NCBI RefSeq assembly: GCF_964237155.1
Contig: NZ_CAXSHH010000001.1
Coordinates: forward strand, 45,891-109,890
From: an uncultured Sphingomonas sp.
GTDB taxonomy: Bacteria > Pseudomonadota > Alphaproteobacteria > Sphingomonadales > Sphingomonadaceae
Direction: 5' to 3'
DNA: 64,000 nt
Made by a program: the position numbers and the translations under genes. A model generated the notes under the pieces. The model worked only from the letters and a program-made list of their open reading frames with translations, had not been told where the DNA came from and searched no databases. Shown piece after piece: positions 14,167 through 30,012 of this stretch. The number at the start of each line of letters is the position of its first letter. Position 1 is the first letter of the stretch.

Positions 14167-15948
14167 ATGCACGCCTACCGCACCCACACTTGCGCCGCGC
14201 TCTCGACCAGCAACGTCAGCGAGACCGTTCGCCTGTCCGGGTGGGTCCACCGCAAGCGCGATCACGGCGGCGTGCTGTTCGTCGACCTGCGCGACCATTA
14301 CGGCATCACCCAGATCGTCGCCGACGGCGACTCCCCCGCGCTCGCCGCGCTCGAGCAGGTGCGCGTCGAGTCCGTCCTCACGATCGACGGCGTCGTGAAG
14401 AGCCGCTCGGAGGCGACGGTCAACACCGCGCTCGCGACCGGCGCGATCGAGGTGTTCGCGCAAGGGGCAACCGTCCAGTCCGCCGCGCAGGAGCTGCCCA
14501 TGCCCGTCGCGGGCGAGGCCGAATACCCCGAGGACATTCGCCTGCGCTATCGCTTCCTCGATCTCCGCCGCGAGCGCCTCCACGCCAACATCATGCTTCG
14601 CTCGCAGGTGATCGCCAGCATCCGCAACCGGATGATCGCCCAGGGTTTCACCGAGTTCCAGACGCCGATCCTGACCGCCTCCTCGCCGGAGGGCGCGCGC
14701 GATTATCTCGTCCCCAGCCGCGTCCATCCGGGCAAGTTCTATGCGCTCCCCCAGGCGCCACAGATGTTCAAGCAGTTGCTGATGGTGGCGGGTTTCGACC
14801 GGTACTTCCAGATCGCGCCGTGCTTCCGCGACGAGGACGCGCGGGCGGATCGATCGCCCGGCGAGTTCTACCAGCTCGATTTCGAAATGAGCTTTGTCAC
14901 GCAGGAGGACGTGTTCCAGGCGATCGAACCCGTGCTCCACGGCCTGTTCGCCGAGTTCGCCGACTGGCAGGGCAGGGGGCGGCAGGTATCCGCACTCCCG
15001 TTCCCGCGCATCCCGTACCGTGAGTCGATGCTGAAATATGGCAACGACAAGCCCGACCTGCGCAACCCGCTCGTCATCACCGACGTGTCCGACCATTTCC
15101 GCGGCTCCGGCTTCGGCCGGTTCGCGACGATCGTCGAGGGCGGCGACGTGGTCCGCGCCATCCCCGCGCCGAATACGGCCGACCGGAGCCGCAAGTTCTT
15201 CGACGACATGAACGGGTGGGCGCAAGCCGAGGGCTTTGCGGGCCTCGGCTACGCGACGCGCAAAGGCGGCGAGTGGGGCGGCCCGATCGCCAAGAACCAC
15301 GGCGAGGAGGGCATGGCCAGGATCGCCGAGGCGATCGGGCTCGGGCCCGACGATGGCGTGTTCTTCGCGGCGGGCAAGAAGGCGCATGCGGCCAAGCTCG
15401 CCGGTCTGGCGCGTACCCGGGTGGGCGAGCAGCTCAACCTGATCGACCCGAACCGCTTCGAGTTCTGCTGGATCGTCGACTTTCCGATGTTCGAATGGGA
15501 TGAGGATACCAAGAAGGTGGATTTTAGCCACAATCCCTTCTCGATGCCGCAGGGCGAGTTGGAGGCGCTTGAGACGAAGGACCCGCTCGACATCCTCGCT
15601 TACCAGTACGACATCGTCTGCAACGGCGTCGAGCTGTCGTCCGGCGCGATCCGGAACCACCGGCCCGAGATCATGTACAAGGCGTTCGAGATCGCGGGCT
15701 ACAGTCAGGCCGACGTCGACCGCGGTTTCGCGGGCATGATCAACGCGTTCAAGTTCGGCGCCCCCCCGCACGGCGGCTCCGCGCCCGGCATCGACCGGAT
15801 AGTGATGCTGCTGGCGGGCGAGCCCAACATCCGCGAGGTCGTGCTGTTTCCGATGAACCAGCGCGCCGAGGATCTGATGATGGGCGCGCCGGGGCCGGTC
15901 TCGGCGATGCAGCTGCGCGAACTGAACCTGCGGAGCACGGCGGAGTGA
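14167..15948 (+). CDS. aspS: Aspartate--tRNA ligase
   Basis: 593 aa. Class II motifs [24 protein letters not shown] and [14 protein letters not shown]. The presence of gatCAB in the window suggests a non-discriminating type (inference). Confidence 0.97.
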
Positions 15949-15954
15949 CTTTCT

Positions 15955-16080
15955 AAAGCCCCTCCTCTTCAGAGGAGGGGTTGGGGGAGGAGCAGGCTGG
16001 TTGTGAGTGGGGTCAGCCGGTACCTACTCGGTGAGGGCGTTCTCCTCCCCAAACCCCTCCTCTAAAGAGGAGGGGCTTTT
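15955..16080. repeat. Repeat family B, copy B2 (126-bp nested palindrome)
   Basis: AAAGCCCCTCCTCTTCAGAGGAGGGGTTGGGGGAGGAG ... CTCCTCCCCAAACCCCTCCTCTAAAGAGGAGGGGCTTTT. It fills the gap between convergent aspS and glpD. Its right arm contains the last 5 codons and the stop of glpD. Confidence 0.8.
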
Positions 16081-17662: not shown

Positions 17663-19888
17663 ATGCCCAGAAACGTGACACCTGGCCTTCCCACGCGCCA
17701 GCAAGTGCTCGACTTCATCGCCTCCACCGACGAGCCCGCGGGCAAGCGCGAGATCGCGCGCGCCTTCGGCCTCTCCGCGCAGGACAAGATCGTGCTCAAG
17801 GCGTTGCTTCACGACATGGCCGACGAGGGACTGATCGACTCCGCCCCCGGCCGCGCGTTCCACAAGATGGGTGGGCTGCCCAAGGTCACCGTGCTCCGCG
17901 TCGCCGATGTCGACGATGGCGGCAATGTCTGGGCGGTCCCCGAACATTGGGAGGCGGAAACCCCGCCGCCGCGCCTGCGCGTCCGCGAGCGCAAGCGAGG
18001 CCAGCTCGGCATCGGCGAGCGCGTCCTCGCCCGGACGGAGGAGGCGGGCTCGGGCTGGATCGCGCATCCCCTGAAGACGCTCGCCAAAGCGTCCGAACAG
18101 GTGCTCGGCGTCCTGCGTGCCGACGGCGACCGCTTCTGGCTCACCGGTGTCGAGAAGAAGGAACGACGCGAGTTCGCAGTGTCCGACACCGGCGGCGCGG
18201 CGGCGGGCGACCTGGTGCTCGCCGAGAAGACCGGTCGTTCACCGCGCATCACCGTGCGCGTGACCGAGCGATTGGGCGATCCTTTCGCCCCACGCTCTTT
18301 CTCGCTGATCGCGATCCACAAGCACGGCATCCCCGATCATTTCGCAGACGAAACGATCGCCGAGGCTGAGGAGGCGGCGACCCTCGACATAGGTCAGGAT
18401 CGTCAGGATCTCCGCCACCTGCCCATCGTCGCGATCGACCCCGTCGACGCCCGCGACCACGACGACGCGGTCTGGGCCACGCCTGACGACGACCCGGCCA
18501 ACGCGGGCGGCTGGAAGGCGATCGTCGCCATCGCCGACGTGTCCTTCTACGTCCGCCCCGGCTCCGAGATCGACCGCGAGGCGCGCCGGCGCGGCAACTC
18601 GGTCTATTTCCCCGACCGGGTCGTGCCGATGCTGCCCGAGATCCTGTCGGCGCATGTCTGCTCGCTCGTCGAGGGCGAAGACCGGGCCGCGCTCGCCTGC
18701 CACCTGCAGGTGACGCCGAGCGGCACCCTGAAGTCATGGCGCTTCACCCGCGCCGTGCTCCGCATCGCCGCGAACCTTGCCTATGAGGAGGCGCAGGCCG
18801 CGATCGACGGCGAGCTCGTCCATCCGCTGACCGACACCGCGCTCCGTCCGCTGTGGGACTGCTGGCGTGCCCTGCTCGCCGCGCGCGAGAAGCGCGAGCC
18901 GCTCGATCTAGACCTGCCCGAACGTCGCGTGGTGTTAGACGAGAAGGGCCGGATCATGTCGGTCGCGCCGCGCGAGCGGCTCGACGCGCACCGGCTGATC
19001 GAGGATTACATGATCGCCGCCAACGTCGCCGCCGCCAAGGCGCTGGAGGCGAAGAAGTCGCCCGTCATGTACCGCGACCACGAACAGCCCAGCCGCGAGA
19101 AGCTGGTCGCGCTCAAGGACTATCTGGAGACGTTCGACATCCCCTTCACGCTGGGCCAGGTCGTCCTGCCCAAGACGTTCAATCGCATCCTGGACAAGGT
19201 GGGCGAGTCCGAGTTCCGCCCCCAGGTCATGGAACAGATCCTGCGCACGCAGACGCAGGCCTATTACGGCCCGGCCAACACGGGCCATTTCGGGCTGTCG
19301 CTGGGCAGCTACGCCCACTTTACCTCGCCCATCCGGCGCTATGCCGACCTGCTCGTCCACCGCTCGCTGGTGCGGGCATACAATCTCGGCGACGGCGCGT
19401 TGACCACCGGCGAGGCGGATGGGATGGAGCGGATCGGTCAGTCGATCAGCGGTTTCGAGCGCCGCGCGATGGAAGCCGAGCGTGACACGATCGACCGCTA
19501 CGTCGCCGCGTTCCTGTCGGAGCGCGTCGGTCAGACCGTCGAGGCGCGGATCACCGGCGTGCAGAATTACGGCTTCTTCGCCACGGTCGAGGGCGTCGGT
19601 GGCGACGGACTAATGCCCGTGCGCGATCTGGGCGGTGAGTACTTCCGCTTCGACGAGGCCGCGCGGACGCTGACCGGCGAGACGAGCGGCGAGCTCTACA
19701 CGCTTGGCCAACGGCTGGAGCTGCGCTTGGCGGAGGCGAACTCCATTTCGGGGGCGCTCCGCTTCGAATTGCCGACCGGCAAGGGAGCGGCGGCTCCGTC
19801 GGAAGCCGATCGCAGACGTGGCGGACCGCGCGTGCTCAAGCGGCGTGGACGTCCCGCCAACATCCGCCACCAGGGCGGGCGTCGGTGA
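17663..19888 (+). CDS. rnr: Ribonuclease R
   Basis: 741 aa. RNB catalytic region (IDPVDARDHDDAV, HFTSPIRRYADLLVHR), S1-like C-terminal part and a basic tail. Confidence 0.95.
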   Translation: MPRNVTPGLPTRQQVLDFIASTDEPAGKREIARAFGLSAQDKIVLKALLHDMADEGLIDSAPGRAFHKMGGLPKVTVLRVADVDDGGNVWAVPEHWEAETPPPRLRVRERKRGQLGIGERVLARTEEAGSGWIAHPLKTLAKASEQVLGVLRADGDRFWLTGVEKKERREFAVSDTGGAAAGDLVLAEKTGRSPRITVRVTERLGDPFAPRSFSLIAIHKHGIPDHFADETIAEAEEAATLDIGQDRQDLRHLPIVAIDPVDARDHDDAVWATPDDDPANAGGWKAIVAIADVSFYVRPGSEIDREARRRGNSVYFPDRVVPMLPEILSAHVCSLVEGEDRAALACHLQVTPSGTLKSWRFTRAVLRIAANLAYEEAQAAIDGELVHPLTDTALRPLWDCWRALLAAREKREPLDLDLPERRVVLDEKGRIMSVAPRERLDAHRLIEDYMIAANVAAAKALEAKKSPVMYRDHEQPSREKLVALKDYLETFDIPFTLGQVVLPKTFNRILDKVGESEFRPQVMEQILRTQTQAYYGPANTGHFGLSLGSYAHFTSPIRRYADLLVHRSLVRAYNLGDGALTTGEADGMERIGQSISGFERRAMEAERDTIDRYVAAFLSERVGQTVEARITGVQNYGFFATVEGVGGDGLMPVRDLGGEYFRFDEAARTLTGETSGELYTLGQRLELRLAEANSISGALRFELPTGKGAAAPSEADRRRGGPRVLKRRGRPANIRHQGGRR

Positions 19889-21001: not shown

Positions 21002-21033
21002 GTTCTGCTCCCGCGTGCGGGAGGGGGAATAGA

Positions 21034-26209: not shown

Positions 26210-26305
26210 CTCCCCTTCCGCTTGGCGGGAGGGGTTGGGGGAGGGTGTGTGCGGAGGTGGGCATGACAGGCCCTCCCCCGACCCCTCCCGCAAGCGGGAG
26301 GGGAG
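26210..26305. repeat. Repeat family B, copy B3
   Basis: CTCCCCTTCCGCTTGGCGGGAGGGGTTGGGGGAGGG-(spacer)-CCCTCCCCCGACCCCTCCCGCAAGCGGGAGGGGAG. It lies between the maoC stop and the thiolase start, which are co-directional on the minus strand. Confidence 0.8.
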
Positions 26306-26868: not shown

Positions 26869-29800
26869 ATGGCCACCACCGCACCCGCCGACGCCCGCGC
26901 CACCATGCGCGGGTTGCACCGCGCGCCCGAACCCGATGTTCTAAAGCCGTTGCTGGAGCGGGCGCGGCTGGGCGCCGAGGCGCGCGAGCGGGTGATGGGA
27001 ACGGCGCGGGGAATGCTGGTCGACCTGCGCGCGGCTCAGGCCAAGGGATGGGTGAACCGGTTCCTGCAGCAATACCGGCTGAACTCGTCGGAAGGCGTCG
27101 CGCTGCTGAGCCTGGCGGAGGCGTTCCTGCGCGTCCCCGATCCGGAAACGGCCGACCTGCTGATCGCGGACAAGATCGGCGACGCGGATTGGCGAGCGCA
27201 TACGGGCAAGTCGAGTTCGGCGCTGGTCAACTCGGCGACCTGGGGACTGGTGGTCGGGCGCGCGCTGGTCGGGGAAGGGGAGACGGGCCCGCTCCGCCGG
27301 CTGATGAACCGGGCGGGCGAGCCGTTCGTGCGGCAGGCGGTTGGCGTGGCGATGAAGATGATGGGCGAGATCTTCGTCATGGGCCGGACGATCGAGGAAG
27401 CATCGAAGCGGATGCGGCGGCCCGAGCACCGGGGCTTCACCGCCAGCTTCGACATGCTGGGCGAGGCGGCGCGGACGCGGGAGGATGCCGAGCGATACCT
27501 CGAGTCCTATGGCCGGGCGATCGACGCGGTCGGGCGCGAGGCGGGTTCGGGGCACTCGATCTCGGTCAAGCTGTCGGCGCTGCATCCGCGTTACGAGGTG
27601 GCGCGGTGGGACGAGTGCGTGCCCGAGCTGACCGCGATGCTGGAGATGCTGGCGGTGCGGGCGGCGGGGCTGGGCATCGCGTTGACGGTCGACGCCGAGG
27701 AGTCGGAGCGGCTGGAGATGAGCCTCGACATCATCGGATCGGTCGCGCGCTCGCCCAAGCTCAAGGGCTGGGACGGGTTCGGGATGGCGGTGCAGGCCTA
27801 CAGCAAGCGCGCGCGGCCGGTGATCGCCTGGGCGAACACGCTGGGGCGGCCGATGAACGTGCGGCTGGTCAAGGGCGCGTATTGGGATAGCGAAATCAAG
27901 CGGACGCAGGTCGAGGGGCTGGCGGACTACCCGCTGTTCACGCGAAAGGCTTCGACGGACGTGTCGTATCTGGCGGTCGCGCGCGACATGCTGGATGCGG
28001 AAAACATCCGGCCCGCCTTCGCGTCGCATAACGCGCTGACGGTGGCGACGATCGTGGAATGGGCGGGCAAGCCTGATGGTAGAAGAGGGGGCGACTTCGA
28101 ATTCCAGCGGCTGCATGGGATGGGCGAAGGGCTATATGAGCGGCTGGTCGCGGAGAACGGCTATCGGTGCCGCATATATGCGCCGGTCGGGGGGCACCGC
28201 GACCTGCTGGCGTATCTCGTGCGGCGGTTGCTGGAGAACGGGGCGAACTCGTCCTTCGTGCACCAGCTGGCGGACGAGGGGTTGAGCGAGGCGGACATCC
28301 TGGCCGATCCGGTCGTGCGGATCGCAGGGGTGGGGGGCACGCGGCATCCGTCGATCCCGCTGCCCGAGGCGCTGTTCGGGGCGGAGCGGCGGAACAGCGC
28401 GGGGTTGGATCTGAGCGACCGGGGGGTGCTGGAGCGGACGGTGGCGGTTACGTCTTCTCCCCTCCCGCTTGCGGGAGGGGTTGGGGGAGGGCAGGTCGCT
28501 GGCGAACGGCAGCTTGCGGGTGTAGGGGGCGGGCCCTCCCCCAGCCCCTCCCGCGAGCGGGAGGGGAGCGCTTCGTCAGCTGTCGGCGCGGCGATCGGAC
28601 GGGCCAGTGCAGCCTTTCCGGGCTGGTCCGCGACCTCGGTCGAGAAAAGGGCGGCGGTGCTCGATCGGCTGGCCGATCTGGTCGAGGCGCACCGGGACGA
28701 GCTGATGGCGCTGCTCGTGCACGAAGCGCGCAAGACGCTGGCCGATGCGATCGGGGAGGTGCGCGAGGCGGCCGATTTTTGTCGTTATTACGCCGCCGAG
28801 GCACGCGCGAAACTTCAGCCGGTCGAGCTGCCCGGGCCGACGGGGGAGCGGAACGTCCTGCGGCTGGAAGGTCGGGGCGTGTGGGCGACGATCGCGCCGT
28901 GGAACTTCCCGCTGGCGATCTTCCTGGGACAGACGGTGGCGGCGTTGGTGACGGGTAATGCCGTATGCGCGAAGCCCGCGCCGCAGACGCCCTTGACGGG
29001 TAAGCGCGCGGTGGAGTTGGCGTGGGAGGCGGGGGTGCCGCGCGACGTGCTCCAGTTCACGCCGGGCGGACCGGAAGTGGGGCAGGCGCTGACCGCCGAT
29101 CCGCGGATCGCGGGCGTCGCGTTCACCGGGTCGACCGCGACCGCCAAGCGGATCGCGCGGACTCTGGTGGAGGATGATGATCGCCCGATCGTGCCGCTGA
29201 TCGCGGAGACGGGCGGGATCAACTGCATGGTCGTCGATTCGACCGCGCTGCCGGAGCAGGTGGTGGCCGATGTCGTGACCTCGGCATTCCGGTCGGCGGG
29301 GCAGCGTTGCTCGGCGTTACGACTATTGCTGGTGCAGGAGGACGTGGCCGAGGGCGTGCTGCATATGCTGGCCGGGGCGATGGACACGCTGCGCGTCGGC
29401 GATCCGGGCGATCCGGCGACCGATGTGGGGCCGGTGATCGACCAGGCGGCGTATGATCGGCTGATGGGCTACCGCGAGGAGGCGCGCGGGCGTTGGGTCA
29501 AGACGGTGGACGCGCCCGAGGATGGGCTGTTCGTGCCGCCAACGTTGATCCGGCTGGACCGGGTGGAGGAGCTGGACCGCGAGTGGTTCGGGCCGCTGCT
29601 GCATGTCGCGACGTGGAAGGCGGGGGCGTTGGAGGAGACGATCGCGCGGGTGAACGCCAAGGGGCATGGGCTGACGATGGGGCTGCACAGCCGGATCGCG
29701 CAGGCGGCGGAGCTGGTGGAAGCGACGGCGCGGGTCGGGAATCTGTATATCAATCGGTCGATGATCGGGGCGGTCGTAGGGTCGCAGCCTTTCGGGGGCG

Positions 29801-29940
29801 AGGGGTTGTCGGGGACCGGGCCGAAGGCGGGGGGACCGCACTATTTATACCGGTTCTGCCTGGAGCGGGCGGTGTCGGTGGATACGACCAGCGCGGGCGG
29901 GAACGCGACGTTGCTGTCGCTGGACGAGGGCGGGATCTGA
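26869..29940 (+). CDS. putA: Bifunctional proline dehydrogenase / L-glutamate gamma-semialdehyde dehydrogenase (short PutA without DNA-binding domain)
   Basis: 1023 aa. PRODH barrel half (SFDMLGEAART, VRLVKGAYWD, EFQRLHGMGE). ALDH half (FTGSTATAKRI, ETGGINCMVVDSTA, SAGQRCSALRLL). Confidence 0.96.
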   Translation: MATTAPADARATMRGLHRAPEPDVLKPLLERARLGAEARERVMGTARGMLVDLRAAQAKGWVNRFLQQYRLNSSEGVALLSLAEAFLRVPDPETADLLIADKIGDADWRAHTGKSSSALVNSATWGLVVGRALVGEGETGPLRRLMNRAGEPFVRQAVGVAMKMMGEIFVMGRTIEEASKRMRRPEHRGFTASFDMLGEAARTREDAERYLESYGRAIDAVGREAGSGHSISVKLSALHPRYEVARWDECVPELTAMLEMLAVRAAGLGIALTVDAEESERLEMSLDIIGSVARSPKLKGWDGFGMAVQAYSKRARPVIAWANTLGRPMNVRLVKGAYWDSEIKRTQVEGLADYPLFTRKASTDVSYLAVARDMLDAENIRPAFASHNALTVATIVEWAGKPDGRRGGDFEFQRLHGMGEGLYERLVAENGYRCRIYAPVGGHRDLLAYLVRRLLENGANSSFVHQLADEGLSEADILADPVVRIAGVGGTRHPSIPLPEALFGAERRNSAGLDLSDRGVLERTVAVTSSPLPLAGGVGGGQVAGERQLAGVGGGPSPSPSREREGSASSAVGAAIGRASAAFPGWSATSVEKRAAVLDRLADLVEAHRDELMALLVHEARKTLADAIGEVREAADFCRYYAAEARAKLQPVELPGPTGERNVLRLEGRGVWATIAPWNFPLAIFLGQTVAALVTGNAVCAKPAPQTPLTGKRAVELAWEAGVPRDVLQFTPGGPEVGQALTADPRIAGVAFTGSTATAKRIARTLVEDDDRPIVPLIAETGGINCMVVDSTALPEQVVADVVTSAFRSAGQRCSALRLLLVQEDVAEGVLHMLAGAMDTLRVGDPGDPATDVGPVIDQAAYDRLMGYREEARGRWVKTVDAPEDGLFVPPTLIRLDRVEELDREWFGPLLHVATWKAGALEETIARVNAKGHGLTMGLHSRIAQAAELVEATARVGNLYINRSMIGAVVGSQPFGGEGLSGTGPKAGGPHYLYRFCLERAVSVDTTSAGGNATLLSLDEGGI
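28457..28568. repeat. Repeat family B, copy B4, located inside the putA reading frame
   Basis: CTCCCCTCCCGCTTGCGGGAGGGGTTGGGGGAGGG-(spacer)-CCCTCCCCCAGCCCCTCCCGCGAGCGGGAGGGGAG. It is translated in frame as [38 protein letters not shown] (putA codons 530-567). Confidence 0.85.
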
Positions 29941-30012
29941 GGTTCGGAAAGGAAAGAGCCCCTCATCTTTAGGGAGTTGGGGAGGACAACGCCGGTTGCG
30001 TGTAGGAAGCAA

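Follow-up and report, generated by a model that had tools for sequence, protein, structure and literature searches.

A REP-like palindromic element read in frame within a recurrently occupied loop of PutA in Sphingomonas

Rickettsia palindromic elements (RPEs), which lie in frame within protein-coding genes, were reportedly described by Ogata et al. in 2000 and by Claverie & Ogata in 2003. The occurrence of RPEs within genes is reviewed in PMC10969869, and Di Nocera et al. (2013, PMC3733652) list intragenic repetitive extragenic palindromic (REP) sequences of the GTAG/CGTC type from free-living bacteria, among them Sphingomonas wittichii, Sphingopyxis alaskensis, and Erythrobacter litoralis. 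The same study describes different REPs at about the same recB site in two Xanthomonas species, and REPs as known targets for other mobile DNA (PMC3733652). Here we report an in-frame palindromic element of ~112 nt, a member of what we call the A family, at positions 28457-28568 (plus strand) of a 64,000-nucleotide stretch of DNA from an uncultured Sphingomonas sp. (the window), where it is translated as residues ~530-567 of the bifunctional enzyme PutA. With a probability of about 0.72, we read it as a REP-like selfish element that is tolerated in a permissive PutA loop.

The host gene putA (26869..29940, plus strand) was identified by its open reading frame (ORF), its Pfam domains, and its match to BjPutA, and encodes a type-A bifunctional proline dehydrogenase/glutamate-semialdehyde dehydrogenase of 1023 aa. 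Pfam assigns the domains PRODH, Pro_dh-DNA_bdg, Pro_dh (179-466), and Aldedh (569-998), and the alignment with BjPutA (3haz/4q73; E = 1e-277) covers 22-525 and 572-1018, with a break exactly where the insert lies. In translation, the element gives SPLPLAGG...REREGS, which corresponds exactly to residues 530-567 of the intact 1023-aa ORF, and a predicted tryptic peptide would span ...QLAGVGGGPSPSPSR.... An earlier note, made from the sequence alone, had placed a palindrome at codons 530-567, read through without a stop or frameshift, between the proline dehydrogenase and aldehyde dehydrogenase halves; the ORF, the residue numbers, and the limits of Pro_dh and Aldedh agree with it on each point. 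The closest protein matches are 89-90% identical, and the closest species-representative genome is 88% identical. A search for further host proteins with the 38-aa insert peptide, which is short and of low complexity, against 1.84 billion representative proteins gave two weak matches only, and two metagenome scans with the left putA flank, in which strain-level presence/absence variants were sought, gave no match each.

The element is a nested palindrome formed by two 36-nt arms, 94% complementary to each other, with a nonconserved central spacer of 40 nt (28493-28532) between them. The left arm (28457-28492) consists of the hairpin CCCCTCCCGC-TT-GCGGGAGGGG (28459-28480), TT, and GGGGGAGGGC, and the right arm (28533-28568) of GCCCTCCCCC, AG, and the hairpin CCCCTCCCGC-GA-GCGGGAGGGG (28545-28566), so that each arm holds a perfect 10+2+10 hairpin. 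The 22-nt unit CCCCTCCCGC-NN-GCGGGAGGGG, with its 10-bp stems, is a short GC-rich stem-loop of the REP kind; the two units are inverted, lie 86 nt apart, and are extended by the inner stem GGGGGAGGGC/GCCCTCCCCC into a head-to-head dimer, and the 36-nt arms have the form of the terminal inverted repeats of a MITE (miniature inverted-repeat transposable element). The predicted RNA fold of the 146 nt at 28440-28585 has a free energy of -117 kcal/mol (z = -10.0), and none of 200 dinucleotide shuffles was as stable. The arms, the hairpins, and the fold of the ~112-nt nested palindrome that had been proposed are thus all present. Four occurrences of the hairpin motif were counted in the window versus 0.00 expected from shuffling, and nine of the arm motif GGAGGGGTTGGGGGAGG versus 0.29 expected, six of these nine matches (0-1 mismatch) being both arms of the three full copies described below. 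With a shuffle expectation of 0-0.3, a chance origin of the repeat matches was rejected. In Rfam, a search of the whole window at the gathering score returned two tRNAs only, and the element had no match.

To place the element among its relatives, we compiled 83 Sphingomonas putA loci, made up of the window, three loci retrieved for their protein identity, and 79 of 80 species representatives, and measured the linker length between the anchors NSxGxDL and AFxxW. The linker is short (48-55 aa between the anchors) and collinear with BjPutA in 30 of the 83 loci; the DNA of these short linkers has no excess structure (fold z about 0), whereas filled linkers reach z = -6 to -14. The insert-free orthologue P0003 (locus L001, 87% identical) is collinear with BjPutA at this place (TEPHSDMIARTIEMPADQ versus KAETGDLKPIADATPDQ). 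Fitch parsimony on a neighbor-joining tree of PutA, built with the linker removed, assigns the empty state to the root, and by this comparison of sequences the short, nonpalindromic linker is ancestral. The converse, a linker that was palindromic from the start, was rejected, as BjPutA and 30 species have a short nonpalindromic one. Empty orthologues hold about 12-17 native residues at the site (e.g., EPHSDMIARTIEMPAD), and the window PutA is thus only 25 aa longer than that of L001 between the anchors, the element having replaced ~12 native residues rather than being simply added. Therefore, the clean gap of ~38 aa that had been predicted for genomes lacking the insertion was found only in part: orthologues without the insert do exist, but they carry 12-17 native residues there, and the net difference is 25 aa. 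A nonpalindromic linker of the same length in all relatives was not seen in this ortholog alignment, 30 of the 83 linkers being short.

The same PutA position is occupied by at least eight peptide or DNA types, whose starts fall within about one codon of each other and in codon phases 0, 1, and 2. In the clean cases, which alone were used because boundaries called from minimum-free-energy structures were noisy, with predicted stems running into the flanks, the insert starts 21-22 residues after the anchor Asn. The A family of the window is read as PLPLAGGxGGG...PSPNPSREREG, A-family DNA lying one base out of register in L003 as SPSRLREGL..., and the A' sub-family as PLPFRGGVGVG...PHPNPSPEGEG. 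A different palindrome, CCCCGGCGAAGGCCGGGG..., is read as PGEGRGP...DPGLRRGG, and a B' type as FPREGGGP...DPRLRGG; at least three further families (C, D, and E), element-within-element nests (L029, L058), and decayed remnants (L033, L019, and others) are found at the site as well. CGTC-type palindromes are present in the PutA linker of the two closest relatives of the window, L002 and L004. The linker states are scattered on the PutA tree, the window (A) grouping as sister with L002 and L004 (B), with L001 (empty) adjacent, and Fitch parsimony requires at least 36 state changes, versus ~49 for shuffled states, and at least 13 changes between empty and filled. As judged from these sequences, the site was filled repeatedly and independently by different palindrome families.

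Several loci show how elements may succeed one another at the site. At L007:9436-9543, a different A sub-family stands at the exact position and in the exact frame of the orthologous copy of its clade (L010, L013, L016, L018, and L020), with the inner stem GGGGGAGGGG in place of GGGGGTGGGC and an unrelated, shorter spacer, which suggests a copy replacement or gene conversion via the shared terminal hairpins. The putA linkers of L029 and L058 are 103 aa and 100 aa long between the anchors. A further long palindrome is nested in resident A elements, as ...NHAGGMVDPDGSGH... in PutA of L029 and as ...DHAGGMIDPALG... in RNase R of L053, and appears to represent a family that lands inside other repeats. 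The tetranucleotide CGTC stands at the start or end of several palindromes, namely those in the putA linkers of L047, L077, L002, and L036 and that at L014:492-572 in the RNase R gene.

Changes of length in PutA are restricted to this loop. Across the genus, the linker varies between 9 and 64 aa, and other blocks of insertion or deletion are at most 5 aa long, the exceptions being a single block of 12 aa and the alignment's ragged N-terminal end. In the AlphaFold model, residues 534-565 are coil with a predicted local distance difference test score (pLDDT) below 50, lying between the helices 518-529 and 562-588, the latter being the first aldehyde dehydrogenase helix; the insert peptide, which is Gly/Pro/Ser-rich, is probably disordered by this model. 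An unbiased scan of the 83 loci for long palindromes found occupied sites in the putA linker (36/83), in the spacer between the genes for a MaoC-like dehydratase and a thiolase (28/79), and in the spacer after the putA stop codon (25/80), and nothing elsewhere within putA. Because the palindromes peak at the linker and at two spacers, with nothing elsewhere in the gene, the linker behaves as an intergenic spacer would within a fused gene. Five of the six frames of the window element contain no stop, and for strong palindromes of these genomes the typical number of open frames is 3-4 of six; for this reason, about one-third of insertions into a tolerant loop should be viable, and by a rough estimate a high repeat flux combined with such a selective filter would be enough for the observed recurrence.

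Within the window, the A family has three full copies and one solo hairpin. A close intergenic copy at 26210-26305 is flanked by two minus-strand genes, those of the MaoC-like dehydratase and the thiolase, and a sub-family variant at 15955-16080, with the hairpins CCCCTCCTCT..AGAGGAGGGG, lies downstream of the ORF at 14167-15948. The stems of this variant differ from those of the A family by paired changes (CCCGC/GCGGG versus CCTCT/AGAGG). Its right hairpin (16054-16075), which is followed by CTTTTAT, scores as intrinsic-terminator-like just 3' of the ORF, and sub-family copies ending in AAG...CTT may double as terminators. Across 1.7 Mb of Sphingomonas DNA around putA, we counted 55 full A-type elements, with the flanks GCT-CCCC...GGGG-AGC or AAG-CCCC...GGGG-CTT; of 248 long palindromes that a separate scan detected irrespective of sequence, 177 were situated outside genes. 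The family that the earlier note had recognized from the matches at 26210 and 15955 is therefore borne out by the motif counts, and with 55 elements its copies in the window are not the only ones. No GTAG or CGTC tag belongs to the A family across the 55 copies, and the CGTC 4 nt upstream of the window element is part of the putA codons ACG TCT.

The solo hairpin at 21005-21026 (2 mismatches) lies in the spacer of two minus-strand genes, a gap of ~30 nt that separates the stop codon of the first from the start of the second, and is possibly a remnant or a single-unit insertion. About a third of the species carry a long palindrome in the MaoC-thiolase spacer (e.g., L010:9332-9436). The spacer after the putA stop codon, ~1.5 kb 3' of the linker, is the third site that is often occupied, and in the window it has only a small terminator-like hairpin at 29959-29975 (minus strand).

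A second in-frame site was found in the gene of RNase R (17663-19888, plus strand; RNB domain by Pfam), ~9.5 kb upstream of putA, and beyond the PutA and RNase R sites the scan of the 1.7 Mb found no family-type palindrome within a gene. The loop in question lies within the RNB domain (18761-18865 in the window) and, in its native form, reads DGxLxHPLTxTAL between RIAANxAYExAQ and PLWxCW; 8 of the 19 loci scored, including the window, have this form. The A family occupies the loop in frame 2 in L013:401-480 and L017:609-688 and in frame 1 in L058:1582-1689 and L034:1720-1826. CGTC-type or other palindromes are found in L010, L014:492-572, L019:637-760, and L053, that of L053 being nested, and deletion footprints in L009 (SPPVDARGD), L023, and L033. 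The RNase R loop shows the same pattern as the PutA linker.

The conservation of the element was assessed in a single orthologous putA copy common to eight S. faeni-clade species. Its arms are variable at 7 of 74 positions compared with 304 of 564 four-fold degenerate sites (Fisher p = 3e-14), whereas its spacer, with 31 of 69 variable positions, is not significantly different from the four-fold sites. In the MaoC-thiolase spacer copy of six S. faeni-clade genomes, 5 of 78 arm positions and 8 of 33 spacer positions are variable versus 284 of 563 four-fold sites. Because the arms are conserved at synonymous sites and the same DNA is read in two frames, it is the palindrome as nucleic acid, and not the peptide, that is conserved, and because the intergenic copy 2.2 kb upstream is conserved likewise, this conservation is a property of the family and not of putA. 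Conservation of the insert at the protein level was considered and rejected on the same two grounds. The conservation of the MaoC-thiolase copy suggests a function in the intercistronic region of that operon; a T.G mismatch is common to its orthologous copies and preserved in them.

The earlier note had proposed that the hairpins, as RNA, act as an internal attenuator, an RNase barrier, or a pause site. A terminator scan at 28457-28568 gave no terminator-like match and no T-run, the right flank being AGCGCTTCGTC, whereas the intergenic hairpin at 16054-16075 does score; the stem mismatches of the putA copies showed no preference for G.U on the mRNA strand (42 G.U versus 33 A.C). In addition, 30 of the 83 species are free of the insert, and unrelated palindromes occupy the site in different frames. 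These results lend no support to the proposed RNA roles, and, given the conservation of the arms, we keep a role at the nucleic-acid level as a minority hypothesis.

In the explanation that we prefer, which agrees with the REP/MITE-like insertion, tolerated in frame at the junction of the two enzyme halves, that had been suggested from the window alone and is supported by insert-free collinear orthologues and by a real, apparently mostly intergenic family, the A family would be a GC-rich, nonautonomous palindromic repeat of the REP/REPIN kind, built of two inverted 22-nt hairpin units, an inner stem, and a variable spacer. The element inserted into putA where the proline dehydrogenase module meets the first helix of the aldehyde dehydrogenase module, displacing ~12 native residues. 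Its survival there would depend on a sequence that is free of stops and whose net length keeps the frame, on a Gly/Pro/Ser-rich peptide that is probably disordered, and on a loop that alone in PutA tolerates a change of length. The insert peptide would have no specific role, the palindrome being conserved as nucleic acid, and across the genus the site has repeatedly been colonized, overwritten, and in part erased by different families of repeats. We infer such a mobility mechanism for the family, and we expect that the insert has a neutral effect on how PutA functions and that the insertions owe their location to selection on permissiveness instead of targeting.

Several observations weigh against this explanation. 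Occupancy of the loop is high, at 36 of 83 loci when stems are judged strictly and 53 of 83 when linkers are classed by type; it equals or exceeds that of the busiest nearby spacers and could mean targeting or benefit instead of passive tolerance. A rate of change in the arms ~five-fold below the synonymous rate is not expected of strictly neutral junk, and simple transposition leaves unexplained that the native segment is gone in almost every filled lineage. A transposase (no transposase search was made), a target-site duplication, and the exact ends of the element could not be defined; when filled sites were set against empty ones at the MaoC-thiolase spacer, at the putA linker of sister species, and at a spacer between convergent genes, either the divergence was too great or a different palindrome occupied the nominally empty site. 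Finally, with a mean pLDDT of 66, the AlphaFold model is a middling one in which several real domains also score low, and it lends support to a permissive loop, not proof.

One alternative draws on the conserved arms. A hairpin might be kept in putA for work that it does as nucleic acid, either as mRNA structure, by a ribosome pause that separates the folding of the two enzyme halves, an RNase barrier, or an attenuator, or as a DNA site for a host factor, and any stable palindrome would then suffice. The REPs of E. coli bind gyrase and IHF. Such work would account for arms that change well below the synonymous rate in eight orthologous copies around a neutral spacer, for the like conservation of the intergenic copy, for the very stable fold, and for the convergence of unrelated palindromes on a site whose occupancy matches that of the busiest nearby spacers. 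We nevertheless consider it unlikely, as 30 of 83 species do without an insert, the terminator scan and the mismatch counts favor no mRNA function, and decayed copies and deletion footprints are common (L033, L019, and L024 in PutA; L009 and L023 in RNase R); besides, ribosomes unwind a translated hairpin, and a truncated, stop-less mRNA would be costly. It is likewise unlikely that the palindromes are actively maintained by nucleic-acid selection even within a translated gene, with the PutA junction and the RNase R loop serving as functional 'intergenic-like' stations at which any family can supply the hairpin. If this were true, Sphingomonas would require a stable hairpin at these places, for example for a DNA-binding host factor, supercoil management, or the cotranslational separation of the enzyme halves, and it would be explained why unrelated families converge on one codon and why the arms change ~five-fold more slowly than synonymous sites.

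The loss of native residues raises a different question, whether the Gly/Pro-rich peptide has by now become a needed spacer. By such a ratchet, the native strand would have been lost after the first insertion, a filler of sufficient length would be required between helix 518-529 and the first helix of the aldehyde dehydrogenase half, and the site would stay filled while one filler gave way to another. The native 10-13 residues are indeed missing in nearly all filled lineages, being retained in the intermediate-like L002, L004, and L005; no filled lineage regains the native sequence, short remnants persist (L033, L019), and Gly/Pro/Ser and Arg/Glu frames occur while the Cys/Trp-rich third frame is not seen. 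A ratchet leaves the conservation of the arms at synonymous positions unexplained, however, and several short 'other' linkers of 58-62 aa show that the filler can shrink considerably; we regard it as quite unlikely, and since it covers persistence only, it is compatible with a tolerated selfish element and does not replace it. It is also conceivable, although very improbable, that the repeats are localized by a mutational hot spot, that is, by a preference for pre-existing palindromes as targets or by local hopping from the copy 2.2 kb upstream, and not by tolerance of the protein. Consistent with a hot spot are the nested insertions in L029, L058, and RNase R of L053, the different A sub-family that L007 carries exactly where its clade has its copy, the frequent occupation of the MaoC-thiolase and post-putA-stop spacers, and the record of REPs as targets of other mobile DNA (PMC3733652). 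Against it stand independent gains in lineages whose sisters are native and nonpalindromic (L030, L041, and L042 versus L064 and L045), and families that share no sequence and presumably use different enzymes, and the restriction of PutA length variation to the loop is in itself sufficient to localize the repeats.

In most presentations, in-frame palindromic repeats figure as a curiosity of Rickettsia, and the PutA linker offers a natural experiment on them in a free-living, culturable genus, where one loop of a substrate-channeling enzyme of essential fold exists in its ancestral state and in at least eight independent filled states, with the same DNA read in two frames. Selfish repeats are here a main source of length change in otherwise rigid proteins, and this natural variation suggests that the loop could accept engineered insertions in type-A PutA. 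For annotation, Sphingomonas peptides such as PLPLAGGxGGG...PSPNPSREREG or PGEGRGP...DPGLRRGG should be taken as repeat-derived. The turnover of several families at one codon, together with the conservation of the arms at the DNA level, makes a good comparative system, and a tractable one for asking why repeat arms stay conserved for so long and whether REP-like elements are parasites of the genome or useful components of it.

Comparison with the described systems shows where this locus belongs. Like the RPEs, the window element is a palindrome in the range of ~100-150 nt that lies in frame, without stops, in a conserved enzyme at a structurally permissive place (predicted coil, tolerant of indels), presumably tolerated on the protein surface, and several families are involved in both cases. 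Unlike them, the A family shares no RPE sequence and is very GC-rich, and its host is free-living with a high-GC genome; neither its sequence nor its peptides (PLPLAGG..., SRLREG...) appear in the R. conorii list of intragenic REPs and RPEs, which places it outside the RPEs. Moreover, a single PutA loop was recolonized by many families, with turnover, nesting, and loss of native residues, whereas the accounts of RPEs in PMC10969869 and PMC3733652 proceed gene by gene and report no single-site turnover. The comparison with Rickettsia that the earlier note had drawn is nevertheless apt, as CGTC-tagged REP dimers at the same PutA site in other Sphingomonas species encode ...SREGGSPGS...LDSRFRGN, matching CGTC-1 of R. 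conorii (SFPRKRES...LDSRFRGND). Because the B/B' elements carry CGTC and encode this R. conorii peptide type, the analogy reflects in part a real relationship, which runs through the B/B' elements of other species and not through the A family. The CGTC-type peptides link the high-GC repeats of Sphingomonas with the AT-rich ones of Rickettsia.

A close structural resemblance is seen to the GTAG/CGTC REPs (PMC3733652), which likewise are short stem-loop units (here with a stem of 9-10 and a loop of 2-4), form mostly head-to-head dimers that fold into larger hairpins, and are mainly intergenic with a minority within known genes; the A family differs in being untagged. The supplementary host list of that study contains neither putA nor the RNase R gene nor A-family peptides, and recurrence at one codon, with at least eight types and at least 36 changes in 83 species, is on a scale not described there. 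Full-text literature searches gave no description of these repeats in Sphingomonas. The novelty that had been suspected for such insertions is overstated, as intragenic REPs, those of Sphingomonas included, were already catalogued (PMC3733652); putA and the A-family peptides are absent from that list. The ERIC/RU MITEs with open reading frames (Delihas 2007, PMC2759123) resemble the A family as small, nonautonomous inverted-repeat elements that can be translated within a host protein; the A element differs from them in being a near-perfect palindrome throughout its arms and not only in short terminal inverted repeats, and in having no target-site duplication identified in comparisons of diverged sequences. 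With the REPINs mobilized by RAYT (Bertels & Rainey 2011, PMC3116915), the A family shares two inverted REP units that form one long hairpin with a spacer, vertical long-term persistence, and conserved arms, although REPINs are described as extragenic and the GTAG tag usual for RAYT-associated REPs is absent from the A family. We therefore regard the PutA element not as a new mechanism but as a known phenomenon in a new host gene, brought there by an untagged REP-like family.

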